A stretch of 64,000 nt of DNA, from assembly GCA_041489255.1 (NCBI GenBank), contig JBGPQV010000011.1:3528-67527 (forward strand), written 5' to 3'. The notes below the pieces were generated by a model. It searched no databases. It had not been told where the DNA came from and worked only from the letters and a program-made list of their open reading frames with translations. This DNA is from Thermoplasmata archaeon (GTDB lineage: Archaea > Thermoplasmatota > Thermoplasmata > RBG-16-68-12 > JAFNFQ01). Position 1 is the stretch's first letter; the number at the start of each line of letters is the position of its first letter. The translations under genes were made by a program, and so were the position numbers. Of the stretch, positions 11,206 through 46,543 are shown in pieces.

Positions 11206-11279
11206 GCCACCGTAGCTCAGCCGGTTAGAGCGAGAGTTTCGTAAACTCTAGGCCAGGGGTTCGAATCCCTTCGGTGGCT
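11206..11279 (+). tRNA. tRNA-Thr (anticodon CGU)
   Basis: Manual cloverleaf. The acceptor stem GCCACCG/CGGTGGC is a perfect 7 bp. D stem GCTC/GAGC, anticodon stem AGAGT/ACTCT with loop TTCGTAA (anticodon CGT), T stem AGGGG/CCCTT with T loop TTCGAAT, and discriminator U. No encoded CCA. A TTTAA-like box sits about 30 nt upstream. Confidence 0.8.
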
Positions 11280-11392
11280 CTTCATCCAGCTCTGAAGGAT
11301 TCGTCACTTGGACATGGACTCTATCGATGGTATCATTTCTGATAGCATCGCGGAGCCTCCGCACAGCAATTAAGTAGCCAAGATGCGATACA

Positions 11393-29486: not shown

Positions 29487-29597
29487 GGCGGTTCCCTAGA
29501 CGAGGATGTACGGTATTAGTAGGTATCGCAGGCGGACACACCATGGCATCGCCGACTGGGAAAACGTTCATTAGTGAGGGGACAGCTTCCGGCCTCG

Positions 29598-31919: not shown

Positions 31920-31976
31920 GTCTCAGCCTGAATGAGAGCTCGTTGGAAATAGCTTCCCGTTTCCTGGTGGGGAGGC

Positions 31977-33017
31977 TCATTTGTCGATTGCCCGCTCATA
32001 GGACGCAATGTACTGAGACGCGATCTTGTCCATGTTAGCAGTCTTCTCGACGAACTCATACGCTCGCACGCCCATCTCTCTGGTCGCCTGCGGGTCATGC
32101 ATGCCCTCCTGTATGCAGCTCCATATCTCTTCGGGACTCTGGGCGAGCCATCCGGTGATCCTGTTCTGGATGACATCTGGGATGTTGCCGAGCGGAGGTG
32201 CGATGACGGGTTTCTTGAAGGCTATGGGGAAGTAGATCGAACCCGAGGTCGTGATGTCCCTATAGGGCTGCACCACTACGTTGCACGCCTTGAACCAGTA
32301 CTGCAAATCAGCGTCTGAGATGAAGCCCAAGTGCGATATGAGGTCGGTTCGATGATTCGCCGCTTCACGGATTGCCGCCCCAAGTTCAGGTTCCCTGCAT
32401 TCGCCAAAGATGCAGAATCTGACGCTCCGAGCGGTGTCCATCGATAGAAGCTTCAGGAAGTCCTCCGTCCCCTTATAAGGGTGGGTCGGAGCATAGTGGC
32501 CCACGACGAACTCCTCTTCCCCGATTCCTAGGCGAGTCCTAGCTTCCTTCTCTGAGATTGTGTCCTCGAAGGCCCCGTTGAAATTCATGCAAGGTATGAC
32601 AACATCGTCTGCCTGCCAATTCTCAGGCAACCCCTTGGCGGCGAAAGCCCTCTTCGCGTCTGAAATGGATCTCTGGCTGTGCCAGACAGCGACACTCGTC
32701 CTGTCGAGATAGAGATGTGTGACCGAGAGGTCATCTTTGAACACAGGGTCATGGGGGGTGATGTTGTGCACCGTCCAGACCTTGGGAATCCGTTTTCGGA
32801 AGAACAGCTTGGCCATCGTCAGGGAATCGAAGACGTTCCAGTGGAGATGACAGACATCGTTGTCGCCAAGCGTCTTCACCCAGAACCTGATGTAGTTCCT
32901 CGGCCAGCGCAGGTACGGCATCGGCGCTTCATTCACTTCAACGCCATGGGCCCTGAGTGCAGCGTTCAGCCTCATCACATAGCCATGTCTTGTGCTGGGC
33001 ACGCAGAGCACTCTCAT
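31977..33017 (-). CDS. Glycosyltransferase family 4 (GT-B fold)
   Basis: The C-terminal GT1/GT4 domain pattern is present (...FGECREPELG...ISDADLQYWFKACNVVVQPY...), as is the E-x7-E-like region. Confidence 0.7.
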   Translation of the reverse strand: MRVLCVPSTRHGYVMRLNAALRAHGVEVNEAPMPYLRWPRNYIRFWVKTLGDNDVCHLHWNVFDSLTMAKLFFRKRIPKVWTVHNITPHDPVFKDDLSVTHLYLDRTSVAVWHSQRSISDAKRAFAAKGLPENWQADDVVIPCMNFNGAFEDTISEKEARTRLGIGEEEFVVGHYAPTHPYKGTEDFLKLLSMDTARSVRFCIFGECREPELGAAIREAANHRTDLISHLGFISDADLQYWFKACNVVVQPYRDITTSGSIYFPIAFKKPVIAPPLGNIPDVIQNRITGWLAQSPEEIWSCIQEGMHDPQATREMGVRAYEFVEKTANMDKIASQYIASYERAIDK

Positions 33018-33020
33018 GCA

Positions 33021-33890
33021 CTAGCCTTCTCGGACGAAAAACAGATTCGTGTATCTCTTGTTCTCCTGAGTGCATCTCTCCATGATTCCCGGGATGTCTG
33101 CTGGCCGTATCGTCCTCCTTCTTTCGTCGATTTCATGGAGAACGAAGCCCTGCTTCACGAAGAGGTCAATGTATTCCGCAGGCTCCGTGCCGAACTGCCT
33201 GAGTCCGAACGGCCAAAACTCCGACACGATCTTAAGGCGCCTATTCTTCTTGAGGAGATCGGGCATTCCTTGGACCGCTCCACCTTCGGCCCCTTGAATG
33301 TCCATCTTCATGAAGTCCACGCGCCCCCCGAAGTCTGCAAGGAAATCATCCAATCTAACGGCCTCTATCTCAATCGAAGTTCGACCGTCGTTAGGATCGT
33401 AAATCCTGTGATCTCCCTTGTTATCCTCCGAGAGGAAGAGTCGAATTCGCTCGGTTCTGTTGGCGACCGCCTTTTGCACGAGAATGACGTTCTGATAACC
33501 GTTCATCTCCACGTTATTCTTCAAGAGACCGAAGTTGGTCGGGTCTGGTTCGAAGGCGATGACCTTGCCATCTGGGCCAACCAATCTCGCTGCAATCAGC
33601 GTGTGATATCCTATGTTCGCTCCGATGTCAAAGACAACATCGCCTTTCTTTATCTCCCCGTTGAGGAGGCCCGTTTCGACGGGTTCGTATATTCCTCTAA
33701 TCGACAAAGCCATGCCATCATTCTGGTCGAGGAGCATCTTGTGTCCCTGGACTTCTGCGATTGCAGTCGGGTCCTTGAGACGAGACACTAGGTAGTGATA
33801 CGCAATCTTGACGGGATAAAGGTCCCCGACGCCTGGAGCGAGAAAAAGAGGCTCCATAATTCTAAAGGCTGGCAGTATCAGCTTCCGCAT
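33021..33890 (-). CDS. FkbM-family methyltransferase
   Basis: Has DIGANIGYHTLIAARLVGPDGKVIAFEPDP and a FkbM-like C-terminal region. The start is MRKLILPAF at 33890. Confidence 0.75.
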   Translation of the reverse strand: MRKLILPAFRIMEPLFLAPGVGDLYPVKIAYHYLVSRLKDPTAIAEVQGHKMLLDQNDGMALSIRGIYEPVETGLLNGEIKKGDVVFDIGANIGYHTLIAARLVGPDGKVIAFEPDPTNFGLLKNNVEMNGYQNVILVQKAVANRTERIRLFLSEDNKGDHRIYDPNDGRTSIEIEAVRLDDFLADFGGRVDFMKMDIQGAEGGAVQGMPDLLKKNRRLKIVSEFWPFGLRQFGTEPAEYIDLFVKQGFVLHEIDERRRTIRPADIPGIMERCTQENKRYTNLFFVREG

Positions 33891-34152
33891 TATGGCGGCG
33901 TCACCGGAGTTCGACCTTATAGCGTTTGCCCGAGGAGAGTCCGGTCCGAAGGCATCCTGAGGATGTGTTCCTTCGCGCTGACCATCGCCCACGACAAGCG
34001 CCTCGCCCCAGACTTCGCACTGACCATGACCATCGGATAAGGCATTGTCGATGCAACGGCTTTGAGCAACCACGAAATGGCAGACCCGTCGATTACGCGA
34101 AATATCAAGACATCGAACCGCGTCAACCGTCCGCTAGCTCGCTCTAGCAACG

Positions 34153-34161
34153 GATAAATAG
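34153..34161 (+). promoter_or_regulatory. TATA-like box GATAAATAG about 38 nt upstream of the 34195 start, with a GGAGA Shine-Dalgarno in the leader
   Basis: The same GATAAATAG box recurs at the same spacing upstream of the 37647 paralog, and a CTTATATC box does so upstream of the 41311 paralog. Confidence 0.4.
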
Positions 34162-34194
34162 AGCTGCATTGATTCTCCAGAGAGGAGATTAGGT

Positions 34195-37100
34195 ATGCAT
34201 GGGATTCGCTGTGCCGCTTTTCCTGTCTGTCTGTTGCTAGTGCTGACTGCTGCCGCTTCATTGATCGACTCGGAAGTCGCGGGCGAGCCCGTTCTCGGTG
34301 TCATTGATTTGCACTATTCGTCGCCCGCACTGGAGATCACCCCGGCACGCGAACCGCTTGAAGGTGACTTCGTCCGTGTCACCGCCCACGTAGAGCTTGA
34401 TGGCACGCAGAACTGGACGAAGCGTGGCGTTGTGCTAGATAAGGGGAATCCGGGGGATCCAGACGACACTCAGGTGTCAGCGCCATTCGTAATGTACACA
34501 GGTGGCGAGTATAAGATGTGGTATGTTGGCGACCCGGGTTCCTCCCCAACTTCATACATTATGTTCGCCAACTCAACCGACGGTGTCACATGGACGAAGC
34601 ACGGCACCGTTCTGAGCCCTTCTGGATTGCAGGAACAGGGCGTACACTACCCCGGCGTGATCTTGGATGGATCGACCTACAAGATGTGGTATGGCGGTTC
34701 AGACGGCACGTATTATAGGATTTTTTATGCAACCTCTCCCGACGGCCTTTCGTGGACGAGACAGGGGTTGGCTCTCGACCTCGGTCCACCCGGAGCCATG
34801 GATGACTCCTCCGTTTTTGCTCCGTTCGTCTTGAGAGAGGGTTCCACATATAAGATGTGGTATACCGGCGGCGACGGCAGCAACAACCGCGTGATGTACG
34901 TCGAGTCAAATGACGGCATCAATTGGGGAACCAGAGAACTGAATCTAGATCTCGGGACGCCTGGCTCGGAAGAAAGCGCACACGTGCAGTTTCCCCATAT
35001 ACTGGTGGAGGGAGGCACGTATCACCTGTGGTATGTTGGACAACTCGCCGCCAGAGACAGGATTTTCTATGCAACATCAGCTGATGGAAAGACGTGGACG
35101 CGGTTGGGGAAGGTCGTTGACCTCGGACCACCCGGTAGCACCGATGATGGACACTTGCTCATGCCGCGCATTCTCCATGAGTCAGGGAAGCCATATCAGA
35201 TGTGGTATGCAGGGAAGGGCACACTCCAGAATATACACCACGCCACGTTCGATTTACCGATCACTCTGCCCGTGTCGGCAAGCGTGGACTTCTATCTAGA
35301 CATGATTGGCCCAGGCACCAACATCGGATCGTCTGTTGTCCAAGTTGGCGCACTTGCACCGTCAAACGCCGACATGGTCTGGCTGGCCACGCCCGCCGGA
35401 GGTCATGTGATCTATGCCGTGATCGACGAAGCGAACTCTGTCGACGAGACCAATGAATCGAATAACGTCGCGTCTCTCGCGGTCAGGGTCGTGGCGAACA
35501 GCCCACCTGTGGCCGATGCGGGGAATGACCAGAGTGTGTTCCGGAACTCGATGGTTGTGCTGGACGGTTCAGCCACTTACGATCCCGAGGGCGACCCGAT
35601 CACTTACTTATGGATCCAGACCGCCGGGCTGCCGATGCCCATGTTCGGAAGCAACACTTCCACCCCATTGGTGGTCACCTACCTCTCTGGGTTCTACACA
35701 TTCCTCCTGACGGCATATGATGATCGTGGCGGGATTTCCACAGATATCACGAATGTGACGGTCACGAACCGGCCCCCCACCGCTGATGCAGGACCTGATA
35801 TTAGTGTCGCCAAGAGGACGCTCGTGATTCTTGACGGATCTGGTTCTTCAGACCCGGATTCCGACTTCCTTTCATACGATTGGGTGCAGACGGGTGGCTC
35901 TCCCGTGACTCTCCATGGCAGCAACACACCGAACCCCACTTTCATGCCTGCGACTGCCGGGCTCCGCACTTTCCGACTAACGGTAGATGACGGAGACCTC
36001 GGGGTCGCCAGTGATTCTGTCCAGGTCAATGTGACCAACCTAGAGCCAATCGCCAGCGCGGGATCGGATATGACCGTCAGGAAGAACACGCCCGTGACCC
36101 TGGACGGGACTGGCTCGAACGATCCTGATGGAGACATTCTCTCATATTTCTGGACCCAGACCGGTGGACCGGGTGTGACCTTGTCCCGCCCAAATTCGGA
36201 GACCGCCACATTTACACCATCTGTCGCCGCCATCTACACATTCAGCCTCTCGGTCAGCGATGGCAATGGCGAGACAGACTCCGATTCCGTCCAAGTCAAT
36301 GCCACTAACAGCGGTCCGGTGGCGAACGCGGGCATGGATTTCACGGCGAGGAAGCGCTCACCCACTATACTTGACGGCACGGGCTCATACGACCCGGATG
36401 GAGACGCCATCACGTTCCTCTGGACTCAGATGGGCGGTCCGCCAGTCATTCCAATGGGGATGGATACGGCCACGCCGACATTCACGCCATTGCGTGCAGG
36501 CCTCTATGAGTTCCGCCTCAATGTCACCGATGCCGACGGAGTGACCGGCTCCGACCAGGTTGGCGTAAGCGTCACGAATTCACTCCCAAGAGCGTATGCA
36601 GGACTGGATTTCACCGCCAAGAAGAAGACCATAGTGACCTTGGATGGAGGCGGGTCTTCCGATCCTGACTTGGAGGCGCTCACCTACGCCTGGTCGCAGA
36701 ATGGCGGCCTGAGTGTGATAATCGTGGACGCGGACAACGCCGTCGCGACATTCACCCCGCTTATGTCTGGCAATTATCTCTTTGAACTCACAGTGGCTGA
36801 CGGCGACGGGGGCATATCCGTGGACAGCGTCCAAGTGACCGTCATCAATGCCGACCCACTGGCGGAAGCAGGACCAGACCTGATTTGCGGGAAAGGCACT
36901 CTCGTGAGTCTCGATGGCACTTCCTCTTTTGACAGTGATGGCGACGTCCTTTCCTTTGTCTGGACTCAGACGAGTGGCCCGACCGTCTCTTTGGCGGGAA
37001 TGGACACCGACTCTCCCAGCTTCACGCCAGCGTCCGTGGGTACATACAAGTTCAGGTTGGCGGTGGATGACGGTGATGGCGGGACGGACACCGACACGGT

Positions 37101-37560
37101 ATTCGTGGTCGTCTACGGGATGGCGCCGACCGCTAGATTGACTGCGAGCGTACCGATGGCGCAGGCAGGCTCATCGATAGGCTTCGACGCCAGCCAATCG
37201 ACTGATTCCGACGGATCCATTGATGTCTTCCGTTTTGAATTCGGCGACGGGGTCAACGAGAGCACGAGCTCGCTTTCGGCTTCTCACACTTACTACGAAC
37301 CAGGCATCTACACCGTGACGCTGACAGTCGTGGATGATGACGGGAACACCAGTACTGCGAAAGTGACTGTGAGAATTCTCGCCGCTGAGCGCAACCTCCT
37401 CGCGGACATATGGTGGCTGATCGCCATCATTGTGATACTGGCGGCGAACGTGGTGTATTTCGCGCTTGAGTGGCGGCGATGGAGAGGGAAAGCCACGAAA
37501 ATCGGACTTGACGAACCAGACGAACTGGAGCCTCCACAGAGCACAGAGAGGAATCGCTGA
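34195..37560 (+). CDS. Giant surface protein 1: signal peptide, about 5 beta-propeller-like repeats, about 9 PKD domains, a TM anchor and a short cytoplasmic tail
   Basis: Has a signal peptide (AAFPVCLLLVLTAAAS). The N-terminal module repeats GxYKMWYxGxDGxxxRIFYATSxDGxxWTxxGxVLDLGPPGSxDD about five times. Then come about 9 PKD-like repeats (PPVADAGNDQSV...LDGSGSSDPDGD.I.Y.W.Q) and a canonical PKD (FEFGDGV...HTYYEPGIYTVTLTVVDDDGN). The C-terminal TM is WWLIAIIVILAANVVYFAL. Confidence 0.7.
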   Translation: MHGIRCAAFPVCLLLVLTAAASLIDSEVAGEPVLGVIDLHYSSPALEITPAREPLEGDFVRVTAHVELDGTQNWTKRGVVLDKGNPGDPDDTQVSAPFVMYTGGEYKMWYVGDPGSSPTSYIMFANSTDGVTWTKHGTVLSPSGLQEQGVHYPGVILDGSTYKMWYGGSDGTYYRIFYATSPDGLSWTRQGLALDLGPPGAMDDSSVFAPFVLREGSTYKMWYTGGDGSNNRVMYVESNDGINWGTRELNLDLGTPGSEESAHVQFPHILVEGGTYHLWYVGQLAARDRIFYATSADGKTWTRLGKVVDLGPPGSTDDGHLLMPRILHESGKPYQMWYAGKGTLQNIHHATFDLPITLPVSASVDFYLDMIGPGTNIGSSVVQVGALAPSNADMVWLATPAGGHVIYAVIDEANSVDETNESNNVASLAVRVVANSPPVADAGNDQSVFRNSMVVLDGSATYDPEGDPITYLWIQTAGLPMPMFGSNTSTPLVVTYLSGFYTFLLTAYDDRGGISTDITNVTVTNRPPTADAGPDISVAKRTLVILDGSGSSDPDSDFLSYDWVQTGGSPVTLHGSNTPNPTFMPATAGLRTFRLTVDDGDLGVASDSVQVNVTNLEPIASAGSDMTVRKNTPVTLDGTGSNDPDGDILSYFWTQTGGPGVTLSRPNSETATFTPSVAAIYTFSLSVSDGNGETDSDSVQVNATNSGPVANAGMDFTARKRSPTILDGTGSYDPDGDAITFLWTQMGGPPVIPMGMDTATPTFTPLRAGLYEFRLNVTDADGVTGSDQVGVSVTNSLPRAYAGLDFTAKKKTIVTLDGGGSSDPDLEALTYAWSQNGGLSVIIVDADNAVATFTPLMSGNYLFELTVADGDGGISVDSVQVTVINADPLAEAGPDLICGKGTLVSLDGTSSFDSDGDVLSFVWTQTSGPTVSLAGMDTDSPSFTPASVGTYKFRLAVDDGDGGTDTDTVFVVVYGMAPTARLTASVPMAQAGSSIGFDASQSTDSDGSIDVFRFEFGDGVNESTSSLSASHTYYEPGIYTVTLTVVDDDGNTSTAKVTVRILAAERNLLADIWWLIAIIVILAANVVYFALEWRRWRGKATKIGLDEPDELEPPQSTERNR

Positions 37561-37602
37561 CTTGATCAGTTCCTGCCCCAACCCATACGCCTGCCCACAA
37601 GT

Positions 37603-37611
37603 GATAAATAG
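37603..37611 (+). promoter_or_regulatory. TATA-like box GATAAATAG about 40 nt upstream of the 37647 start, with a GGGAGG Shine-Dalgarno
   Basis: Identical box and spacing as upstream of 34195. Confidence 0.4.
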
Positions 37612-37646
37612 GCCGGCCAGCAATGTTGATTCAGGGAGGTTGGGAT

Positions 37647-40600
37647 ATGATGAAGGAATGCATTGGTGGTTTGATTGCGCTGTTGCTTCTCTCCGTGTCC
37701 TTCTCGCCTGGCTTGCCGAATCTTACCTCGCTGCCGCAGCCAATCGTCAAGGACATAGACCTGCACTATGCACCTCCAACGTTGACGACTGATCCGCCTG
37801 GTAATCCCTACTTCAGGGACTCCGTCACGTTGCGTGCAACGCTTTCACTGGAGGCGAAGCAGACCTGGACGAAATATGGTGTGGTTCTTGACAAGGGTGC
37901 GCCCGGCGATAATGATAGCAGGGAGGTAAGCACGCCTTCGCTGCTGTACGACCAGGGCATCTACAAGATGTGGTATTCAGGCAACGATGGCGGTGAAGGA
38001 TCCTGGATACTCTACGCCACATCGCCAGACGGGATCTCATGGACCAGGCACGGCACCGTACTAGGTCCTGGGGGTGCTGGCGAAGATCGCAAATTGGTGT
38101 ACCAATTCGTCATGAAGGACGGCGCGATGTTCAAGATGTGGTACAGCGGCTTCGATGGCAGCAACTACAGAATATTCCACGCAACATCGCCTGACGGGAT
38201 TGCATGGACGAAGAAAGGGCTGGTTCTGGACCTTGGCCCTGCTGGGTCACAGGAAGACTTCTATGTCTACGATCCTTACATTCTGAAGGAAGGTAGCACT
38301 TACAGGATGTGGTACACGGGAAGAGACGTGAACCACTGCAGGATTTTCTACACCGAATCATCTGATGGTGTGAACTGGGGGCAACGCAGCGTCTCCCTGA
38401 ATCTGGGGAGCCCTGGCTCGGAAGACGACGCGCACGTCCAGAGTCCATCCATCCTCCGTGAAGGCGGCGGGTACCACATGTGGTACGCCGGGCAGCACGT
38501 CGGGGTAGACCGCATTTTCTACGCGGTGTCCATCGACGGCAAGACATGGACCGGAATGGGCAAAGTGCTGGACGTTGGGCCTGCGGGCGGGACGGAGGAC
38601 ATGAATGTGAATTTCCAGGACGTCCTGCACTTAACCAGCAAACCCAGCCAAATGTGGTATGCGGGCAGAGGTGGATTCGGGAACCTGAAGATACACTACG
38701 CAACTCTTGTACCATACCCGCTTCCCACCAATGTCACCGTGGGATTCTACCTCGACACGGTGGTCCCGAGCTCATTGATTGGGCTAGATACTGTCACTCT
38801 AGACTACTACTCGTCCGCGCAGGCGGAAGTGCAATGGAAAGCTGGACCCCGCGGGACGCACACGATATGCGCGGTGATCGATCCGTACAATAGCATCACT
38901 GAGATGAACGAAACGAACAACATGGCCTGCATCAATCGGGTTGTTCTGAACCATCCGCCAATCGCCGAGGCTGACGGCCCTTACTCCGCGTTCGAAGGGG
39001 GGCAGGTCATCCTTGATGGAAGCGGATCATACGACATCGACAACGACACCCTGCTGTATCGATGGGACTTCACGAACGACGGAGTCATGGACACACCCTG
39101 GCGCTCTAATCCGAAGTATCCTCACGTCTACGGGGACGATTTCGTCGGTCAGGTCGCTCTGTACGTGAACGACAGCTTCGATGTCAGCATGGACACAGCG
39201 AACGTGACTATCTCGAACGTTCTGCCCTCGGGCACGGTCACAATCACATCCGCACAGCACGAAGGCAGTCCGATAGCGTTCTCTGCTCACGTGACTGACC
39301 CGGGCAGCGACGACATCTTCTTCACGTGGCACTGGGGATTCGGAGCACCAGACGATCACTCCACCTACTACAACAACGGAGTCAGCCCTGACCCGTACCC
39401 GAGCACGGACGTCAACCCGAGGGACGTCACCGACGTTAAGAGTCACATCTACGGCGATAATGGAGCTTTCACTGTCACCGTCTTTATTCAGGACGACGAC
39501 AGCGGGAGCCAGGGTACGACACTCACCATCACCGCCACTCCTGACAACCTCCCGCCATCGATCTCAGTCTCCGGCGGTATGAACATCAACGAAGGCCAGT
39601 CAGTCTCCCTGACCGCCACCGCCACCGATCCTGGAAGCGACGACCTGAAGTTCGACTGGTCCTGGGGAGAGGGTTCGTCGGACTCAAAGACCTACTACAA
39701 CGACGGTGTCGGACCGGACCCGCCAGACAGCCCTGGCGGCACGTTCCCGTTCACAGCCACGGACACGAGGACCCATCCCTACGGCGACAATGGACTGTAC
39801 ACGCTCACATTGGCGGTGAATGACGACGATGGCGGTTCGACGACATGGTCCGGTCAGGTCGCGGTTGCCAACCTCCCGCCGACGATCATTCCGTTCGGAC
39901 CATTCGCAGTCGACGAGGGCAGTCCATTGGCGGCGAACACGACCGCCAACGACCCGGGGAGCGACGACTTGACTTTTGAGTGGTCTTTCGAGCTCGGTCC
40001 GGTCATGGTGAACATCCACTTTAACGACGGAGTCGGTCCAGACCCGCCACAGAGCCCGGACGGGACATATCCGTTCACGGCTCTCGACGGCGTCGAGCAC
40101 ACTTACGGGGATAACGCTGTCTTCACGATCACGCTGACTGTGACCGACGACGATGGCGGTTCCGCCACCTACACGACCAATATCACCGTCTCCAACCTCC
40201 CGCCATCGATCGCACCGTTCGGCCCCTTTGAACTGAACGAGGCTGATCCGCTCACGGTCGCTGCGAACGCCGTTGATCCGGGCAGCGACGACCTGACGTT
40301 CACCTGGAGCTTTGAGTATGGTCCGACAATCCCGCACATCTTCTACAACGATGGGGTCGGACCGGATCCTCCGAAGAGCCCCGACGGGGTCTTCCCCTTC
40401 AGCATCGACGATTCCGCCTCTCAAACATACGGAGACAACGGGGTCTTCAGAATCGCGCTGACCGCCGAGGACGACGACGGCGGCATCGCCGCGTACGAGA
40501 CCGTGGTCACCGTGCACAACGTCCCGCCGACGATTGTCGAGGCGAATGTGTTCATGCTCGCAGACATCTCGATAAGAGTGGCGGGGGAGAAGTGGCATGA

Positions 40601-41186
40601 CGTCATCCTCAAGCTCTACGAGGACGGACGGGAGGTCGGCTGGGCGCAGGTCATCAGGTACCCCGGCAGCCCGAACGGCCAGATGGCCACCCTACACGAC
40701 GTCGAGATAACGCTCGACAGGACCTTCTCCGCGGTCGCGTACTACACGCCCGACGACGATCCGATCAACGGGCAGCCCAACGGGGCGAACCCCGCCTGGC
40801 TCATCATCAGCTGGGAGAGCGGCATGGAGACGAAGCTGCACCACACCTTCAACGTCCAGCACCCTGACACATGGGTCTGGACTGTGGACAACCTCTACAT
40901 CTACGCGGTCAACCAGAGGATACACTTCAGGGCGACCGCAACGGATCCCGGGAGCGACGACCTGACGTTCACCTGGGACACCGGTGACGGGAGGACAATG
41001 ACTGGCGTTTACTACAACAACGGGGTCAGCCCGGATCCGTACCCGAGCCCCGAGGTGAAGCCGATCATCGCCACCGACGAGCAGGTCGTGGTCTATGCCA
41101 TCACAGGAACGTACACGATTGCCGTGACGGTCACGGATGATGATGGAGGAATGGCGTCCATCTCATTCACAATCTCAGTGGGCTAG
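37647..41186 (+). CDS. Giant surface protein 2: signal peptide, the same beta-propeller-like module, and about 7 PKD/cadherin-like repeats with no TM
   Basis: The start is MMKECIGGLIALLLLSVSFS (ATG ATG at 37647, 5 nt after GGGAGG). It has the same YKMWY/RIFYATSPDG repeat module as protein 1. Then come about 7 repeats of roughly 100 aa (PGSDDL.F.WS.G...YYNDGVGPDPP.SP.G.FPF...YGDNG.[FY]T[IL]TL.V.DDDGG). Confidence 0.7.
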   Translation: MMKECIGGLIALLLLSVSFSPGLPNLTSLPQPIVKDIDLHYAPPTLTTDPPGNPYFRDSVTLRATLSLEAKQTWTKYGVVLDKGAPGDNDSREVSTPSLLYDQGIYKMWYSGNDGGEGSWILYATSPDGISWTRHGTVLGPGGAGEDRKLVYQFVMKDGAMFKMWYSGFDGSNYRIFHATSPDGIAWTKKGLVLDLGPAGSQEDFYVYDPYILKEGSTYRMWYTGRDVNHCRIFYTESSDGVNWGQRSVSLNLGSPGSEDDAHVQSPSILREGGGYHMWYAGQHVGVDRIFYAVSIDGKTWTGMGKVLDVGPAGGTEDMNVNFQDVLHLTSKPSQMWYAGRGGFGNLKIHYATLVPYPLPTNVTVGFYLDTVVPSSLIGLDTVTLDYYSSAQAEVQWKAGPRGTHTICAVIDPYNSITEMNETNNMACINRVVLNHPPIAEADGPYSAFEGGQVILDGSGSYDIDNDTLLYRWDFTNDGVMDTPWRSNPKYPHVYGDDFVGQVALYVNDSFDVSMDTANVTISNVLPSGTVTITSAQHEGSPIAFSAHVTDPGSDDIFFTWHWGFGAPDDHSTYYNNGVSPDPYPSTDVNPRDVTDVKSHIYGDNGAFTVTVFIQDDDSGSQGTTLTITATPDNLPPSISVSGGMNINEGQSVSLTATATDPGSDDLKFDWSWGEGSSDSKTYYNDGVGPDPPDSPGGTFPFTATDTRTHPYGDNGLYTLTLAVNDDDGGSTTWSGQVAVANLPPTIIPFGPFAVDEGSPLAANTTANDPGSDDLTFEWSFELGPVMVNIHFNDGVGPDPPQSPDGTYPFTALDGVEHTYGDNAVFTITLTVTDDDGGSATYTTNITVSNLPPSIAPFGPFELNEADPLTVAANAVDPGSDDLTFTWSFEYGPTIPHIFYNDGVGPDPPKSPDGVFPFSIDDSASQTYGDNGVFRIALTAEDDDGGIAAYETVVTVHNVPPTIVEANVFMLADISIRVAGEKWHDVILKLYEDGREVGWAQVIRYPGSPNGQMATLHDVEITLDRTFSAVAYYTPDDDPINGQPNGANPAWLIISWESGMETKLHHTFNVQHPDTWVWTVDNLYIYAVNQRIHFRATATDPGSDDLTFTWDTGDGRTMTGVYYNNGVSPDPYPSPEVKPIIATDEQVVVYAITGTYTIAVTVTDDDGGMASISFTISVG

Positions 41187-41269
41187 CCACGTCGGCCGCG
41201 TCATGATGCCTTACGCTACGCACCTTTCTGCCAGAATCGGGCATGCCCCAAACATGCAAGGGCGACGCC

Positions 41270-41277
41270 CTTATATC
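41270..41277 (+). promoter_or_regulatory. TATA-like box CTTATATC about 37 nt upstream of the 41311 start, with a GGAGGAGG Shine-Dalgarno
   Basis: The spacing matches the boxes upstream of paralogs 1 and 2. Confidence 0.35.
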
Positions 41278-41310
41278 GGGAATCGGGAATATCCTCACGC
41301 GGAGGAGGCA

Positions 41311-44300
41311 ATGTTCAAGGAAGGTCGGCGTCTGATATCTGTGTCATTCATTCTTGCCACGTTGCTAGTTTCAACTGTTGCTGTCACAGCAATCGAGCCA
41401 GAGCCGATAGTGAGCCTCGCTGACCTGCACTTCGCCGCCCCGGGTCTCGAACTGCTGCCCGCAGGGAGCCCGGTCGAGGGCGACACGGTACGGATCGTGG
41501 GTCACGTCCAAGCGAGCGGAACGCAGGCCTGGACGAAGGCGGGTGTGGTGCTGGACAGAGGTTCTCCTGGCGAACCCGACAGTCACGAGCTCGGCGCCCC
41601 TTCGGTGATCTACGATGGCGGCGAGCATAAGATGTGGTATGCAGGGACCACAGGCAGCATGACCGGGTCGATACTGTATGCTACTTCGCCCGATGGGGCG
41701 TCCTGGACGAAGCACGGAGCTGTGCTCGCCCCAGGTTCTTCTCCTGAAAACGTCAATGTCCACTATCCTTGCGTGATGAAAGATGGCGTGACGTACAAGA
41801 TGTGGTACAGCGGATTCGACGGCTCTCACTACAGGATATTCTACGCGACCTCGGCCGACGGGCTGACCTGGAGCCGTCAGGGACTCGTCCTCAACCTTGG
41901 GCCTCCTGGTTCCTACGACGACAATTTCGCGTACGGACCCTTCGTGCTCAAGGAAGGAAGCGCCTACAGAATGTGGTATTCTGGGAGTGACGGTGCCAAT
42001 GTCCGCCTCCTCTATGCCACATCTCCCGATGGACGGGGCTGGACGAAGCAGGGCGTCAACCTGAACCTCGGTCCTCCAGGCTCACTCGAGAACGTGCACG
42101 TCTCGCCGAGCTACATCCTCGTGGAGGGCGGCGGATACCACATGTGGTACCGGGGAAGCGATGGCACCAACGACAGGATATTCTACGCGACTTCATCTGA
42201 TGGTCTCTCTTGGAGGCGGCGGGGAGTGGTTGTCGATGTCGGGCCGCCCGGCAGCACCGACGCTGTTCACATTCTGCTCCAATCCGTCCTCCACCTGCCA
42301 GGCATGCCCTACCAGATTTGGTACACAGGCCGAGGTCAGTCCACCATGTACGATAGGATTCACTACGCCTACATGACGTCGGTGCCGATGCCCGTGTCCG
42401 CCGAGGTCGAGTTTTACCTGGACGCAATCTCGCCCGGGAACAGCATGGGAGTGACCATAGCTCAGATCGGGATACTGCACGACTCCACGGCTACGCTGAA
42501 CTGGATTGCGGGACCACCCGGCTGGCACACGATATACGCGGTCATAGATCCGCTCGGCGGTATTCCCGAGACGGACGAGGGCAACAACACCGCCAGCGTC
42601 GATGTCTTCGTCAGGGCGCCCTTGCCGGACTATATACCGGCACAGCCTCGGCCCGTGTCGCCAGTGAAGACCGGGCTGACCCTGCCGCTCCAGCTGTCTC
42701 TCCAGGTCGCGAACATCGGCGGCGTAAACGTGACAGCCGACGCCACACTCGCGATCTGCGACGAGTCAGGGACTCCATTCGCCTCCTTCACGATTCCGTC
42801 CTTGGACTCGGGCAAGGTCTCGGCGCGGTTCACCGCCGCGTGGACATCTCCCGCAGTCCCCGGGACTCATCTTGTGTCCGCGGACGTGGACTACTACGAC
42901 AACGTTGCCGAGTGGGACGAGACGAACAATGTGTACACGTGGACGATTGATGTGGTGGCTGGTCCGGTCACCTCGCTGTCCGTTGGAAGTCCAAGCCACG
43001 TCTCTCCCGCCTTGGTGATGTACGTCAAGTCCTCCACCCCCCTCGACCTCTCCGTCCTCGACCAGGGCGGGTCTGGCATCAACCACACATGGTACAGGAC
43101 AGACAATCTCACTTGGATAGACTACTCCGCTCCGTTCTTCCTCTCCGGGGAGGGAGACCACTATGTCGAGTGGTACTCCGAGGATAACGTCGGGAACGTC
43201 GAGAATGTCTCGCGGCGGGTGCTGAGGGTCGACGACACTCCTCCCGCCACGGCCCTCTCAATAGGCGAGCCCAAGTACACGCTCGGCGGGAACTTCGTCA
43301 CGTCCTTCACTCCTCTCGCGCTTCATGCCGACGACGGCGGCGTCATGCCCGTCGGGACCGACTACACGGAGTACAGGGTGGAAGGCGGGAACTGGAACAC
43401 GTACTCGTCGCCGCTCTTCCTGACGACAGAGGGAATTCACACACTGGAGTTCCACTCCTACGATCTGCTCGCCAACCCTGAGCCCGTCCACTCGATCCAG
43501 GTAGTCGTGGACGACACGCCGCCGACGACGATGGTCGGCGTGGGAGAGCCGGAGTACCAGGCGGCTGACCTCTACGTCACCTCGTCGACCGGCATCAACC
43601 TGACATCAACGGACGGCGGCGCCATCCCGGTCGGGCTCGGCAGGACAGAGTACCGGGTGGATGGTGGTGGGTGGTTCATCTACGCTCACGACATCACGCT
43701 CTCCGGAGCGGACGGCCCTCGCACGATCCAATACAGGTCCGTGGACCTGCTCGGGAACATCGAGATCGTCAGGAGCATTCGCGTCGTCCTGGACAATACG
43801 CCTCCGACAACGACAATCTCCCCTGCAGCCGGGCCGTTCGCAGCGGACATGTGGTTCAACCTCACCACCACGGATTCCGGCTGCGGCGTCGCGGCCATGG
43901 AGTACAAGATAGACTCAGAGCAGTGGAGATTCTATGAAGGCAATTTCACGGTGCAAACCGGACTCCATACGATCTGGTTCAAATCCACGGACAACCTTGG
44001 CAACAGGGAGACGCCGAAGAGCCTCGAGGTGGATATTGAGGCTGAACGCCCGCCGGACATCGCAGTGGGCACGAACTACAAGCCCATGGTCGCGACCGTG
44101 TTCACAGTCGCCCTCCTGGTTGCGGGATTCTGGTCATCGAGGGGGAGACCTTGGAAGAACCGAAAGGACAGGGTGGCAATGCTCCAAGCATTCTGTGCCT
44201 ATTCTCTGCCATTCGCGACGGCCGAGACCGTGACCGGGCTGCTGTCTCTGGCGACCGGGGTCCTCTCAATCCCACCCGTGCTCGGACTCGGAACCGCGGT

Positions 44301-44403
44301 GGACGTGAGCATCCTGTCGATTGGATTTGCCGTGGCCATGCTAAACGTGGCTGGTAGGAAGCAGAAGGGGCCTCCCCCGGGGTCGCAGGACAGCATTGGT
44401 TAG
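41311..44403 (+). CDS. Giant surface protein 3: signal peptide, the same beta-propeller-like module, CARDB-like domains, tandem Ig-like repeats, and a C-terminal multi-TM anchor
   Basis: The start is MFKEGRRLISVSFILATLLVSTVAVTA at 41311. It carries the same repeat module (EHKMWYAGTTG...RIFYATSADGLTWS...). CARDB-like segments are present (IPETDEGNNTASVDVFV and DNVAEWDETNNVYTWTIDV). About 6 repeats of roughly 80 aa follow (Y.[TS]S.T...L...D.GG....G...TEYRV[DE]GG.W..Y..P..L..EG.HT.E..S.D.L.N.E.V.S..V.VD.TPP). The C-terminus has 2-3 TM helices. Confidence 0.7.
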   Translation: MFKEGRRLISVSFILATLLVSTVAVTAIEPEPIVSLADLHFAAPGLELLPAGSPVEGDTVRIVGHVQASGTQAWTKAGVVLDRGSPGEPDSHELGAPSVIYDGGEHKMWYAGTTGSMTGSILYATSPDGASWTKHGAVLAPGSSPENVNVHYPCVMKDGVTYKMWYSGFDGSHYRIFYATSADGLTWSRQGLVLNLGPPGSYDDNFAYGPFVLKEGSAYRMWYSGSDGANVRLLYATSPDGRGWTKQGVNLNLGPPGSLENVHVSPSYILVEGGGYHMWYRGSDGTNDRIFYATSSDGLSWRRRGVVVDVGPPGSTDAVHILLQSVLHLPGMPYQIWYTGRGQSTMYDRIHYAYMTSVPMPVSAEVEFYLDAISPGNSMGVTIAQIGILHDSTATLNWIAGPPGWHTIYAVIDPLGGIPETDEGNNTASVDVFVRAPLPDYIPAQPRPVSPVKTGLTLPLQLSLQVANIGGVNVTADATLAICDESGTPFASFTIPSLDSGKVSARFTAAWTSPAVPGTHLVSADVDYYDNVAEWDETNNVYTWTIDVVAGPVTSLSVGSPSHVSPALVMYVKSSTPLDLSVLDQGGSGINHTWYRTDNLTWIDYSAPFFLSGEGDHYVEWYSEDNVGNVENVSRRVLRVDDTPPATALSIGEPKYTLGGNFVTSFTPLALHADDGGVMPVGTDYTEYRVEGGNWNTYSSPLFLTTEGIHTLEFHSYDLLANPEPVHSIQVVVDDTPPTTMVGVGEPEYQAADLYVTSSTGINLTSTDGGAIPVGLGRTEYRVDGGGWFIYAHDITLSGADGPRTIQYRSVDLLGNIEIVRSIRVVLDNTPPTTTISPAAGPFAADMWFNLTTTDSGCGVAAMEYKIDSEQWRFYEGNFTVQTGLHTIWFKSTDNLGNRETPKSLEVDIEAERPPDIAVGTNYKPMVATVFTVALLVAGFWSSRGRPWKNRKDRVAMLQAFCAYSLPFATAETVTGLLSLATGVLSIPPVLGLGTAVDVSILSIGFAVAMLNVAGRKQKGPPPGSQDSIG

Positions 44404-44877: not shown

Positions 44878-44954
44878 ACCGACCTTCATTCTCCTGATGG
44901 TTGTCGGGTGCACGACAACCCACTTCCTTGATTGTTCCCTTCCCGCAGGATCGC

Positions 44955-45987
44955 TGTACAATCCTGTAATTAGTTTCCTGGAGGCGAAGGGAGTCATGCT
45001 GTCCGCTCCTTTAGTCTTTTCAGGTAGGCTTTCCTATCCTTAGGACGCAGCTTCCTCACGAACGCGTGCGCAGGCGTCTCGGCGTGCTCGAAGTCCAGCG
45101 ACTCGTGGGGCTTCACCTCGTTGTACCATCTCATGATTTCGTCCAGGCTACGGAACTCCTTCTTCCCGTCCGGCCACCTGGCGCGCAGCTTCGACTTGAT
45201 AGTCCCGAAGAGTCTCTCCACCTTCCCGCCGGTCTGAGGATGCTTGACCCTGGAGCGGATGTGCTGCACCTCTATCCCCCGCTCTTCCTCCAGCTCCCTC
45301 AGCTTCGCGTCGAAGTAGCCCTCGGCTTCATACTGAATCTTGGTGAATTGAGATCCGTGGTCTGTCAGGATCTGGCGGGGGAAGCCGTACCTCTCTCCCG
45401 CCGTCAGGAACGTCTGCCAGGCCATCTGTGCAGACGCACTCCTCGTCCTGGCGTAGCCCATGATCAGGCGGGAGGCGTCGTCCAGGATGACGAGCAGCCA
45501 GTCCCCCGGCCTCAGCAGGGTGTAGTCCATCTGCCATAGGGAGTTGGAGAAACGTCTCTCGAACCTGACCCACGACCTCCTCCTCTGCCTGGCGGGGGGG
45601 TCCTTCACGCGACCCGCCTCCTTGAGCACCACATAAAGGCGGTTGTGCGGTATGTGGCGGTTGTACGCCTCCATGATCTTGCGCTCCAGGGCGACTGGGT
45701 GGAGGTGAAACTCCCTCTCGCACTCGAGTATGAAGGCGATCTCCTCATCTGGCAGCTCCCTCCTCGGTCGACCGGCTTCCTTGAGCACCGGGATCTCTCT
45801 GCCGTATCCCGACCTCCTCCACAGCTCCCTCGCCCACTGAGGAGTGATGTTCCACTTCTTGGCGATCGAGTACACAGACTTGACCCCGCCTTCCATTGCG
45901 TCTATGATTCGTGCAACCTGCCCCCGCGTCAGCTTAGGCATGGGGGGTATTGCGGTCTCTCCAAGAAAGTGATTATGGGATTTGACA
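44955..45987 (-). mobile_element. IS481-family-like insertion sequence, 1033 bp, carrying a DDE (rve integrase-core) transposase
   Basis: The termini are 5'-TGT...ACA-3'. The imperfect terminal inverted repeats match at about 22 of 30 positions (TGTACAATCCTGTAATTAG... against the reverse complement of ...GTGATTATGGGATTTGACA). The element is flanked by the 16-bp direct repeat CTTCCCGCAGGATCGC (44939..44954 and 45988..46003), which is a candidate target-site duplication. Confidence 0.7.
44994..45941 (-). CDS. DDE transposase (integrase core domain, IS481-like)
   Basis: The 316-aa protein starts at MPKLTRGQVARII with an N-terminal HTH. The DDE triad lies in WQMDYT, ILTDHGSQF and KVERLFGTIK. The ORF-track N-terminal extension is spurious. 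Confidence 0.75.
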   Translation of the reverse strand: MPKLTRGQVARIIDAMEGGVKSVYSIAKKWNITPQWARELWRRSGYGREIPVLKEAGRPRRELPDEEIAFILECEREFHLHPVALERKIMEAYNRHIPHNRLYVVLKEAGRVKDPPARQRRRSWVRFERRFSNSLWQMDYTLLRPGDWLLVILDDASRLIMGYARTRSASAQMAWQTFLTAGERYGFPRQILTDHGSQFTKIQYEAEGYFDAKLRELEEERGIEVQHIRSRVKHPQTGGKVERLFGTIKSKLRARWPDGKKEFRSLDEIMRWYNEVKPHESLDFEHAETPAHAFVRKLRPKDRKAYLKRLKERTA

Positions 45988-46048
45988 CTTCCCGCAGGAT
46001 CGCCGCGCTCCGATCTGCTTGAGGCGCTATCGCAGTATGACGTTCCTG

Positions 46049-46543
46049 CTAGTCCATGACCCACTTTTCCAGGCCCTCGACGGTCTTCCTGAGGTCAGGC
46101 CGTTCCGCAAGGGACTTGGCGATCCACTTCTCCATGAACTCTATGTCTTTCTGGATTGCGCTGTCCGTCTTTGCGAGTTCCTTCATGATTGACACGCTGG
46201 TGCGCTTCCACTGCACGATTTCCTTCGGCTGCATCCGTTCAACCGAGTACGGGTTGCGCTCGACCGCAACGTCGGTCTGCTCTCTCCAGAGCTTCAGGTA
46301 TCTGTCGTAGATGAACCCCATGAGCAGTATCGCGGCAACAATGATGAAGAACAGATATATCGTTCCGATGAGATTGTTCGTCTGGTTGTCCACTTCTGAA
46401 ACAAGTCCCAATCTGATGAAGAAGGCCCTGAAATAGTTGTAGTAGAAGACTCCGGCGAGAGTCAGCGCCCAGAACACCAGGCTTATCAGGACTTGACTCT
46501 GCTGTATCCGCCATATCTGGACCATCAGGTATTTCTTGACCAA
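46049..46543 (-). CDS. Small two-TM membrane protein (paralog B)
   Basis: The 164-aa protein MVKKYLMVQIWRIQQSQVLISLVFWALTLAGVFYYNYF... has two N-terminal TM helices and a conserved C-terminal soluble region (DVAVERNPYSVER...FMEKWIAKSLA). It is a paralog of 30594..31046. Confidence 0.6.
   Translation of the reverse strand: MVKKYLMVQIWRIQQSQVLISLVFWALTLAGVFYYNYFRAFFIRLGLVSEVDNQTNNLIGTIYLFFIIVAAILLMGFIYDRYLKLWREQTDVAVERNPYSVERMQPKEIVQWKRTSVSIMKELAKTDSAIQKDIEFMEKWIAKSLAERPDLRKTVEGLEKWVMD

Follow-up and report, generated by a model that had tools for sequence, protein, structure and literature searches.

Three adjacent archaeal genes encode large exported proteins that begin with the same type of head and continue into differing stalks. 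What are the heads for, and how did the three proteins come to differ? The locus lies in a stretch of 64,000 nucleotides (hereafter, the window) from an uncultured euryarchaeote, the closest relatives of which are Thermoplasmata MAGs. The reading that we favor, with modest confidence, is that the heads are non-catalytic glycan-binding or glycan-sensing modules of separately promoted, Sec-exported surface proteins encoded in a variable island.

Three paralogs with a common head module

The locus consists of three long, co-directional open reading frames (ORFs) on the forward strand (34195-37560, 37623-41186 and 41137-44403), which also carries the parts of P1-P3 mapped below. The P1 gene (34195-37560) encodes a protein of 1121 aa that comprises a signal peptide, the head, 7 PKD domains, a transmembrane (TM) anchor and a short charged tail. 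The second ORF opens at 37623, and the most likely start of P2 is the ATG at 37647, yielding a protein of 1179 aa (37647-41186) with a signal peptide, the head and a PKD-variant stalk with an insert. The third ORF is already open at 41137, and the start of P3 was placed at the ATG at 41311 by the signal peptide and the Shine-Dalgarno sequence GGAGGAGG, yielding a protein of 1030 aa (41311-44403) with a signal peptide, the head, an extra CARDB domain, four OmpL47-type repeats and a hydrophobic tail. The starts of P2 and P3 both agree with the deposited gene calls, and the resulting intergenic gaps are 86 nt (P1-P2) and 124 nt (P2-P3). The exact P1 protein is recorded in GCA_041481165.1 and JGI 3300052989, under the name 'PKD repeat protein/predicted GH43/DUF377 family glycosyl hydrolase', and all three proteins are labeled GH43/DUF377 hydrolases in IMG.

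The initial annotation described three tandem paralogs that share a signal peptide and an N-terminal module of about 300 aa. The shared module is borne out by pairwise alignments of the N-terminal parts, with 48-53% identity (BLASTP E = 2e-160, 4e-149 and 9e-127), but it extends over ~430 residues, including the signal peptide, which is present in each protein, ~40 aa, 5 blades of ~57 aa and a CARDB-like domain. The head modules map to 34285-35493 in P1 (aa 31-433: N-terminal closing strand, 5-bladed Asp-box propeller and CARDB-like sandwich) and, from sequence alignments with the paralogs, to 37737-38936 in P2 and 41395-42618 in P3; no further copy was found elsewhere in the window.

The head contains a five-bladed Asp-box propeller of the GH130/GH43 fold, with the N-terminal strand closing the last blade, followed by a CARDB-like beta-sandwich; the whole forms one integrated 400-aa unit that would be displayed distally on an Ig-like stalk. 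Blade-to-blade identity is 39-43%, and the Asp-box motif SxDGxxW follows strand 3 in blades 1-4. The heads score at or barely over the gathering cut-off of the Pfam GH130 model (26.5, 28.8 and 33.4 vs 26) and belong to a separate, large clade that is annotated solely as 'GH43/DUF377'. They resemble Asp-box (BNR) beta-propellers, in the definition of Quistgaard & Thirup 2009 (PMC2716378), in that the hairpin SxDxGxxW, located between strands 3 and 4, recurs in successive blades; however, the classical representatives (sialidases, Vps10) are 6- or 10-bladed and irregular, whereas the heads are 5-bladed and regular. In the high blade-to-blade identity, they are similar to recently amplified symmetric propellers (PMC9218822), as is one member of the head family, P0012, in which all five blades are nearly identical.

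Stalks and anchors

The P1 stalk (35494-37383) consists of 6 K319L-like PKD repeats of 90 aa and one classical PKD domain (Pfam PF22352, E 2e-110; PF18911, E 2e-66), that is, 7 PKD-type domains where about 9 had been counted, and is followed by the expected single TM helix (aa 1064-1094) and a cytoplasmic tail, as delineated by a hydropathy scan (37384-37557). The P2 stalk (38937-41183), thought to contain about 7 repeats of 100 aa, has 6 PKD-type domains, namely, one PKD and five PKD-variant repeats with the 'DPGSDD' motif (four of 108-109 aa and the last one of 97 aa), along with a 124-aa insert before the last repeat (ORF aa 967-1090) for which no Pfam or PDB sequence match was found. P2 indeed has no anchor, so that other proteins would have to hold it if it is not released. 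In P3, the head is followed by the extra CARDB domain (42619-42954; Pfam PF07705, 59 bits vs a cut-off of 22.7, two stretches), four OmpL47-type/Big_13-like repeats of 88-94 aa, instead of the reported six of 80 aa (42955-44061; NCBIfam NF047446, 176 bits, cut-off 40, four stretches), and a tail with ~3 hydrophobic segments in the hydropathy scan, in line with the multi-TM tail initially described (44062-44400; 90% identical to the counterpart in the sister genome L001). P1 would be tethered by one C-terminal helix and P3 by its multi-helix tail.

Taken together, these paralogs, with a signal peptide, a common type of head, differing Ig-like stalks and a membrane anchor that is present or absent, make up a modular cell-surface family, as had been surmised. 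The description of the arrays as completely different holds for P3 but is overstated for P1 and P2, both of which belong to the PKD superfamily and align at ~25%. The stalk repeats are old, and Tandem Repeats Finder detected no domain-sized arrays at the DNA level. Through its four repeats, P3 matches the barrel domain model of Leptospira OmpL47 (NCBIfam NF047441/NF047446), but it falls short of the full-length equivalog (152 vs 250 bits), and OmpL47 resides in the outer membrane whereas P3 is archaeal, anchored by TM helices and propeller-headed.

Mosaic divergence

The trio is syntenic in L001, and the comparison of three genomes, all of them MAGs or metagenome contigs, reveals a mosaic pattern of divergence. 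The P2 stalk is 89% identical to its L001 counterpart at the protein level, whereas the head is only 57-60% identical to that of the syntenic gene, which is the level of paralogs; the head of L001 gene 2 (o2) is as close to the heads of P1 and of L001 gene 1 (o1) as it is to the head of P2. At 38952, nucleotide identity climbs from 64% to 97% over a few tens of nucleotides (likelihood-ratio chi-square 131), reaching up to 98% further on. Both maximum-likelihood breakpoints, 35477 and 38952, fall within head/stalk linkers, indicating that whole heads have been exchanged between otherwise conserved stalks. Relative to L001, dS is saturated in the propeller, with omega of ~0.1, and amounts to 0.36-0.67 in the stalk. 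In addition, the L001 ortholog of P3 lacks two of the four OmpL47-type repeats, and a near-identical strain, L082, carries a fourth paralog, with the same structure in two independent assemblies.

The domain shuffling proposed at the outset is real and directly evident from this comparison, and it is further supported by the combination of the same stalk type with unrelated heads in other Thermoplasmata. Hundreds of PKD-repeat surface proteins from Thermoplasmata and Methanomassiliicoccales ('PKD repeat protein' in IMG) contain the P2 stalk type together with the 124-aa insert, at 40-74% identity and with the same order of signal peptide, head and PKD array. Unlike the P2 propeller, the heads in these proteins are PQQ/BamB, VWA, Kelch, SBBP, beta-helix or small non-propeller domains, the latter in P0265, where the stalk is 74% identical. 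The island changes by several routes: recombination at the head/stalk linker that replaces whole head cassettes, gain and loss of paralogs and stalk repeats, and insertion of IS elements.

Promoter-like elements

In agreement with the initial annotation, each gene is preceded by a TATA-like box, 41-43 nt before the ATG, and by a Shine-Dalgarno-like site, 3-8 nt ahead of it. The putative promoter element ATAAATAG is located upstream of P1 (34154-34161) and P2 (37604-37611), its only two occurrences in the window, against 0.24 expected; a different box, CTTATATCGG, precedes P3 (41270-41279). The Shine-Dalgarno-like sites are GGAG (34184-34187, 8 nt 5' of the P1 ATG and conserved in L001), GGGAGG (37634-37639) and, for P3, GGAGGAGG (41301-41308). 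Upstream of genes 1 and 2 of the sister genome, ATAAATAG is conserved while the surrounding DNA has diverged: the P1 box is retained in DNA that is ~58% identical, and AATAAATAGA is found upstream of L001 gene 2 as well. In L082, the region upstream of P3 retains TTATATCGG and GGAGGAG despite differing flanking bases. Judging from the sequence, separate promoters for the three genes appear plausible. No oligo-T terminators are evident in the P1-P2 and P2-P3 gaps, so read-through may occur.

Binding or catalysis

Given the fold, the heads could be active surface carbohydrate enzymes, that is, divergent GH130/GH43-type glycosidases or phosphorylases engaged in the breakdown of environmental polysaccharides or in remodeling of the cell's own glycan, with the PKD/Ig stalks serving as spacers or substrate-binding modules. 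We consider this unlikely. In GH130, the Asp of the 'EDPR' motif is invariant, and the D142N mutant of BT3780 is inactive (PMC4599007). In a profile alignment with Teth514_1788 and 7fip, 'EDPR' falls before the Pro of blade 2, where the heads contain H-Y-P (P1), V-Y-Q (P2) and H-Y-P (P3), so that Tyr replaces the Asp in all three paralogs, and likewise in the L001 counterparts; the protein being pseudo-symmetric, the blade register of this assignment could be rotated. Across 71 family members, the positions before strand 1 are variable in all five blades, the conserved columns all repeat five-fold, and no conserved acidic residue is present at these positions, either among the paralogs or across the family. 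An unconventional active site may exist, considering that blade 3 of P2 reads Y-D-P and that some family members have Asp at pre-strand-1 positions. The near-identical blades of P0012 are incompatible with a single asymmetric active site, the NCBIfam enzyme equivalogs score only 30-39 bits, with cut-offs of 450-550, and the relatives P0043 and P0011, with the order TM - head - TM - HTH, use the head as an extracellular sensor domain fused to a regulator. The heads further differ from the characterized GH130 enzymes, which consist of a single domain and are found mainly in the cytoplasm or periplasm, in the likeness of the blades, each with an Asp-box, in their export, in the CARDB-like sandwich that follows and in the Ig-like stalks on which they sit. 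The presumed active-site face is also the most variable region, where paralog identity drops to 31% over the 5 residues preceding strand 1 and to 35% over loop 2-3, compared with ~80% in the second strand (YKMWYxG) and 64% in the third. The substitution of Tyr for Asp, the similarity of the blades and the variability of this face jointly favor a non-catalytic head that probably binds sugars rather than cleaving them. The ligand face would be the side of the funnel that is made up of the 2-3 loops and of the loops leading into strand 1, at which paralogs and strains appear to vary chiefly; no sugar-binding residues were identified in the heads. The proposed common recognition head is, then, common in its scaffold, whereas the putative ligand face is its least conserved part.

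The propeller might bind protein instead, the three proteins being structural envelope parts or protein-protein scaffolds (S-layer-associated, involved in cell-cell contact, or virus receptors or decoys). Beta-propellers often serve as protein-interaction platforms, conservation in the family is five-fold symmetric, giant multi-propeller members reach 5844 aa with 33 matched stretches, and surface proteins exposed to viruses typically vary among strains in the way seen at this locus (PMC4535781). We nonetheless deem a scaffold quite unlikely: all structural relatives act on carbohydrate, and no partner protein is evident. Nothing links P1-P3 to an S-layer, contrary to the association initially suggested. 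The density of N-glycosylation sequons in P1-P3 is only moderately raised (0.74-0.89 per 100 aa) and far below that of the probable major surface glycoprotein encoded at 51177-54746, which makes a role in the main envelope lattice unlikely. Very unlikely, in our assessment, is that the mosaic divergence arose because the heads evolve faster or because the MAG assemblies are chimeric, within a single operon where the internal TATA-like boxes are functionless. The small number of genomes, all metagenome assemblies, the frequency of rapid evolution in surface-exposed domains and the short gaps that lack oligo-T terminators are compatible with such a scenario. Yet synonymous divergence also jumps within one gene, from ~0.36 to saturation, while omega stays at ~0.1; the transitions are abrupt and located at domain linkers; similarity to the o2 head is no greater for P2 than for P1 or o1; the L082 structure recurs in independent assemblies; and ATAAATAG is confined to two upstream regions and conserved within diverged DNA.

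A variable surface-protein and glycosylation island

The locus is flanked by genes for a GDP-mannose dehydratase, a GT4 glycosyltransferase, methyltransferases, RmlD and an IS integrase. Modular surface-protein and glycosylation islands of this kind are known, and the present one is a fast-recombining but fairly ordinary case. Variation of the island would endow related cells with differing surface repertoires. In the cell-wall island of Haloquadratum, evolution proceeds through recombination and mobile elements, with the genes under purifying selection (PMC4535781). The two islands share a cluster of surface-glycoprotein genes that adjoins genes for glycan biosynthesis, differences between related genomes due to homologous recombination, gene gain or loss and mobile elements, and purifying selection on the genes. 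They belong to different lineages and encode different protein families, and the placement of breakpoints in domain linkers is a feature of the P1-P3 locus.

Three tandem paralogs share a propeller head

Three neighbouring genes on the forward strand of the window, P1 (ORF 34195-37560, 1121 aa), P2 (ORF 37623-41186, 1187 aa) and P3 (ORF 41137-44403, 1088 aa), encode tandem paralogs with a common N-terminal module, as the initial annotation had proposed. In pairwise BLASTP comparisons, the heads of P1 and P2 are about 50% identical (E 2e-160), the modules of P1 and P3 share 53% identity across 433 residues (E 4e-149), and those of P2 and P3 share 48% across 427 residues (E 9e-127). The module measures about 430 aa, rather than the 300 aa or so originally suggested. 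Searching the window with all three proteins by tblastn revealed no additional paralogs outside 34195-44403.

In all three proteins, the shared module starts with a Sec-type signal peptide, followed by a stretch of about 40 residues, one strand of which resembles the third strand of the blades and carries a degenerate Asp-box (FVRVTAHVELDGTQNW). Next come five blades, each ~57 aa long, that follow the pattern WTKxGxVL / DLGPPGSxDDxxVxxPxVL / EGxxYKMWYxG / xDGxxxRIFYATSxDG and show a blade-to-blade identity of 39-43% within each protein; the head is a five-bladed beta-propeller, the fold of the GH130 family. The Asp-box, an SxDxGxxW hairpin that links strands 3 and 4 and recurs over the blades, appears as ATSxDGxxW after strand 3 in blades 1-4 of P1, P2 and P3 alike, and the degenerate copy in the N-terminal closing strand reads ELDGTQNW. 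The S, D, G and W residues of the Asp-box are invariant or more than 90% conserved across the family. The module ends in a CARDB-like beta-sandwich (Pfam PF07705, 25.7 bits in P1 and 29.9 bits in P2, cut-off 22.7).

The head as a probable non-catalytic module

The proteins are named 'predicted GH43/DUF377 family glycosyl hydrolase' in IMG, and their whole-protein scores for Pfam PF04041 (GH130) are 26.5, 28.8 and 33.4 bits (gathering cut-off 26), the matches spanning 70-135 residues of the 320-position model. The family profile aligns with the GH130 structures 9fj8 (Teth514_1788) and 7fip at E ~1e-22. The NCBIfam models of characterized functions yield low scores, namely 30-39 bits for beta-1,2-mannobiose phosphorylase (NF052550, cut-off 450) and 19-26 bits for beta-1,2-mannosidase (NF058598, cut-off 550).

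The Asp of the (E/Y)-D-P motif is invariant in GH130, and the D142N mutant of the GH130 enzyme BT3780 is inactive (PMC4599007). This catalytic Asp is missing in the three heads: the 'EDPR' of 9fj8 and 7fip falls on H-Y-P of blade 2 in P1 and P3 and on V-Y-Q in P2, in an alignment of a pseudo-symmetric protein whose blade register could be rotated; blade 3 of P2 reads Y-D-P. In GH43, the catalytic carboxylates are an Asp in blade 1, an Asp in blade 3 and a Glu in blade 4. The inner-strand carboxylates of GH43, GH32 and GH117 (clans GH-F and GH-J) are not conserved in the heads, the residues preceding strand 1 in the five blades of P1 being S-A, H-Y, F-A, Q-F and L-M; these positions are non-acidic, differ among P1-P3, and are as non-conserved in P2 and P3 as they are in P1. 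They are also variable over 71 relatives, in which each strongly conserved column recurs five-fold, and the five blades of one relative, P0012, are nearly identical. Two relatives from Thermoplasmata MAGs, P0043 and P0011, display the order signal/TM - head - TM - HVO_0163-type/MarR HTH, with the HTH domains in the cytoplasm; their heads are thus the extracellular sensor domains of membrane-bound transcription regulators. Taken together, the Asp position, the variable sites ahead of strand 1, the low equivalog scores, the P0012 blades and the HTH fusions argue against catalysis by the head, so far as sequence comparison can tell.

Strand topology places the 2-3 loops and the loops leading from strand 4 to strand 1 on the face that, in GH43 and GH130, houses the active site, and these loops are the least conserved elements of the head. 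For the five residues ahead of strand 1, identity is 53% between syntenic genes of the window and a sister genome and 31% between paralogs; for loop 2-3, the values are 59% and 35%, respectively. The corresponding values are 84% and 80% for the second strand (YKMWYxG) and 83% and 64% for the third (RIFYATS). Given the missing Asp, the variable pre-strand-1 sites and the variable active-site face, we favour the interpretation that the head is a non-catalytic, glycan-directed binding or sensing module whose specificity face is diversifying. The earlier notion of a common recognition head stands for the scaffold but not for the recognition face, since the ligand face varies (31-35% paralog identity).

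Stalks and anchors

The heads are mounted on differing stalks, for which the general layouts first proposed are sustained, with revised counts. In P1, the PKD array consists of seven domains, not about nine, six of them 90-aa K319L-like PKD and one classical (Pfam PF22352, 361 bits; PF18911, 221 bits; 7 stretches), and leads into a TM helix (aa 1064-1094) with a charged tail behind it. In P2, where about seven repeats of 100 aa had been counted, the stalk comprises one PKD and five PKD-variant repeats bearing DPGSDD, four of 108-109 aa and the last of 97 aa (PF18911, 132 bits, 4 stretches), so that tandem PKD domains above the Pfam thresholds are present in both P1 and P2; no hydrophobic anchor was found in P2. 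Between its last two PKD-variant repeats lies a 124-aa insert (ORF aa 967-1090; 40521-40892) that matched nothing in Pfam or, by sequence search, in the PDB. This insert is ~70% conserved in other Thermoplasmata stalks (P0265 and P0266); P0377, which has a propeller head, carries in its place a different insert, apparently non-homologous by sequence. In P3, the head is followed by one extra CARDB domain (PF07705, 59.1 bits, 2 stretches, cut-off 22.7), four repeats of 88-94 aa, rather than about six of 80 aa, and about three hydrophobic segments. These repeats match the OmpL47-type barrel domain (NCBIfam NF047446, 176 bits, cut-off 40, 4 stretches); the score of P3 against the full-length OmpL47 equivalog (NF047441, 152 bits) is below the cut-off of 250, and a PDB sequence search with the repeats gave no match. 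Hence the description of the repeat arrays as completely different applies to P3 but not to P1 versus P2, whose stalks both belong to the PKD superfamily and can still be weakly aligned.

Genes and expression signals

The window matches contig JBGPBK010000010 of GCA_041481165.1 and was also found in JGI metagenome 3300052989; the genes for aRF1 and ArgRS are located near the locus and mark the DNA as archaeal. The true starts of P2 and P3 are probably later than the openings of their ORFs, at ATG 37647, which is preceded by GGGAGG, and at ATG 41311, which is preceded by GGAGGAGG and where the signal peptide begins; the deposited gene calls, of 1179 aa and 1030 aa, respectively, agree with these starts.

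A TATA-like box and a Shine-Dalgarno motif precede each gene, as noted at the outset, the boxes lying 41-43 nt upstream rather than ~38. In the 64-kb window, ATAAATAG occurs only twice (0.24 occurrences expected), at 34154 and 37604, that is, 41 and 43 nt ahead of the start codons of P1 and P2; CTTATATCGG at 41270 lies 41 nt ahead of the P3 start. GGAG, GGGAGG or GGAGGAGG is located 3-8 nt ahead of each ATG. In L001, the syntenic contig of the sister genome, box and Shine-Dalgarno of genes 1 and 2 are kept amid neighbouring DNA that is only ~58% identical, and in L082, a contig of a near-identical third strain, those of gene 3 are retained within altered flanks. This conservation forms a phylogenetic footprint and is consistent with three putative promoters, so that independent expression is plausible. 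No oligo-T terminators were seen between the genes; therefore, transcriptional read-through is possible as well. Rfam and tRNA scans of the window matched only a tRNA-Thr (11206-11280) that is unrelated to the locus.

Mosaic divergence and its probable origin

Positions 26158-46616 of the window are syntenic with L001 (JAFNFQ010000059, 'Methanobacteriota archaeon bin_16'), which contains the same trio of genes, and the two sequences diverge in a strongly mosaic manner. Nucleotide identity is 85-98% in the conserved flanks, 63-76% in the P1 head, 75-88% in the P1 stalk, 54-71% in the P2 head, mostly 89-97% in the P2 stalk, 96-98% at the P2/P3 junction, 79-87% in the P3 propeller, 62-71% in the P3 CARDB and first repeats, and 87-95% in the P3 tail. 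Synonymous divergence (dS, Nei-Gojobori) has reached saturation in the propellers of P1 and P2 and amounts to 0.36-0.67 in their stalks; omega is ~0.1 in the propellers and 0.09-0.43 over the island comparison. Two-rate maximum likelihood placed breakpoints at 35477 (P1 aa 428, in the linker ...VANSPPVADAG), 37485, 38952 (P2 ORF aa 444, in the linker NHPPIAEA; identity rising from 64% to 97%, likelihood-ratio chi-square 131), 41435 and 42420. For the propeller of L001 gene 2, identity amounts to 60% with P2, 61% with P1 and 64% with o1, the L001 counterpart of P1, whereas the stalk of this gene is 89% identical to that of P2 at the protein level (97% in the DNA directly past the breakpoint). 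Thus, gene 2 of L001 is not a simple ortholog of P2, its propeller being as close to P1 and o1 as it is to P2 despite the similarity of the stalks. The P3 counterpart in L001 has two stalk repeats fewer.

The simplest account of these observations is that whole head cassettes would be replaced by recombination at the linker between head and stalk, alongside gain or loss of genes and repeats, with purifying selection maintaining the fold throughout. Recent gene conversion between paralogs of one genome was considered as another source of the mosaic and rejected, because heads of a single genome share no more than 48-58% identity at the protein level and 65-70% at the DNA level, the latter over short stretches. 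The linker itself could be envisaged as a site of microhomology, given that the peptide N-x-P-P-(V/I)-A-(D/E)-A is alike in P1, P2 and a fourth paralog encoded by L082; at the DNA level, P1 and P2 are not notably similar here, and no such role is proposed. Recent repeat expansion at a slippage-prone contingency locus can be discarded, too: Tandem Repeats Finder detected only trivial repeats of 6-11 nt, and the lack of DNA-level tandem repeats of domain size implies that the domain repeats are old. With cassette replacement as the preferred account, the domain shuffling proposed for the family is borne out by the 89% stalk and 60% head identity of P2 to L001, the break in the linker, and the presence of P2-type stalks under other heads elsewhere.

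Distribution of heads and stalks

At a clustering level of 50% identity, the propeller alone retrieves 8,990 clusters with E <= 1e-3, 936 of them with E <= 1e-30, among which are giants that reach 5844 aa and 33 matched stretches. Relatives of the head are found in Thermoplasmata and many bacterial phyla, joined to T9SS tails, PKD, FN3, DUF11 and further modules of extracellular proteins. The archaeal ORFs with such heads span 400-2800 aa, with N-terminal signal sequences and often C-terminal TM helices, and tandem copies are common. PF22847, which is listed among the precomputed matches of many relatives, was absent from the hmmscan results even at E = 10. Other heads (PQQ/BamB, VWA, Kelch, SBBP, beta-helix) sit on the P2-type stalk, insert included, in Thermoplasmata 'PKD repeat proteins' that number in the hundreds; in P0265, for example, a stalk 74% identical to this one carries a small head that is not a propeller. 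This recurrence indicates that shuffling of heads and stalks is a property of the lineage.

The existence of a modular surface family evolving by domain shuffling holds; the adhesin or S-layer-associated role first suggested for it is conjectural. The locus joins known kinds, namely PKD-stalked archaeal surface proteins, hypervariable surface/glycosylation islands and Asp-box propellers of the GH130 fold. In other respects it is of an expected type, since archaea were known before to possess glycosylation islands that vary and modular surface proteins on PKD stalks. Two points stand out: a large clade of GH130-fold heads that are labelled hydrolases is probably non-catalytic, and the recombination breakpoints fall on domain linkers. 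With its 89% stalk, 60% head and linker break, the locus is a clean case of module-level recombination in an archaeal surface island.

A more ambitious reading, which we offer as a tentative and rather doubtful conjecture, is that the entire clade of ~9,000 clusters, with its giants containing dozens of propellers, consists of five-fold symmetric, non-catalytic GH130-fold lectins or sensors mislabelled as hydrolases, and that Thermoplasmata-type archaea swap heads among conserved PKD stalks through recombination at the linker, promoter and signal peptide moving along with them. If true, this would provide for modular variation of surface specificity within populations, for instance, against viruses or for other glycan ligands. 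Thousands of proteins annotated as 'predicted GH43/DUF377 glycosyl hydrolase' would then be binding or sensing modules, not enzymes, and metagenome CAZyme counts would read differently, especially for Thermoplasmata and candidate phyla.

The surrounding island and the third strain

The genes flanking the trio encode a GDP-mannose 4,6-dehydratase, three methyltransferases, a GT4 glycosyltransferase, an RmlD-type reductase and an rve-family IS integrase, and the GC content drops to 54-56%. Identity across the island varies between 54% and 98% with sharp breaks; glycan-related neighbours, recombination, gene gain and loss, a mobile element and purifying selection, the hallmarks of a hypervariable surface/glycosylation island, are all present. 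The combination of recombination and gain or loss under purifying selection matches the pattern described for the cell-wall island of Haloquadratum (PMC4535781).

The IS-like element (44951-45988; integrase ORF 44994-46064, - strand) lies directly downstream of P3 and is found in the window only, being missing from both L001 and L082. The glycan genes at 33021-34073 and 31113-33017 (both - strand) diverge as well. The FkbM-type methyltransferase gene adjoining P1 is without an aligned counterpart in L001. The adjacent GT4 and methyltransferase genes are ~69-71% identical to L001 in nucleotide sequence (GT4 dS ~3.8) versus 88-92% in the outer genes, so that the glycan genes belong to the divergent block of the P1 head. 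Two small genes, 30594-31046 and 46049-46543 (both - strand), are paralogous (53% aa identity, E 2e-52), with predicted membrane helices and no Pfam match. They share the same orientation, one on either side of the variable island, and could represent its borders or recombination anchors.

The third strain (L082/L083) is ~93% identical to the window in nucleotide sequence throughout. At L082 1574-5101, it encodes the fourth paralog, of 1175 aa (head, about 8 PKD and TM), inserted at ~29.5 kb, where the window has an 88-bp intergenic gap (29486-29574); the propeller of this paralog shares no more than 50-55% identity with the other heads. The P3 counterpart (L082 17169-20490) is split by a frameshift in blade 4 into ORFs of 232 aa and 888 aa. 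Since the split is identical in two independent assemblies (ENA and JGI), it is probably real, reflecting a pseudogene or a phase change.

N-glycosylation sequons occur in P1-P3 at 0.74-0.89 per 100 aa, compared with 0-0.3 in cytoplasmic proteins. A protein of 1189 aa encoded at 51177-54746 (+ strand), built of PKD, CARDB and CarboxypepD_reg domains, has 3.4 N-x-S/T sequons per 100 aa (40 in total) and, on these sequence features, would be a better candidate than P1-P3 for the major surface or S-layer glycoprotein. The family-5 extracellular solute-binding protein encoded at 2312-5341 (- strand) is unusually long (1009 aa) and carries 12 N-glycosylation sequons.
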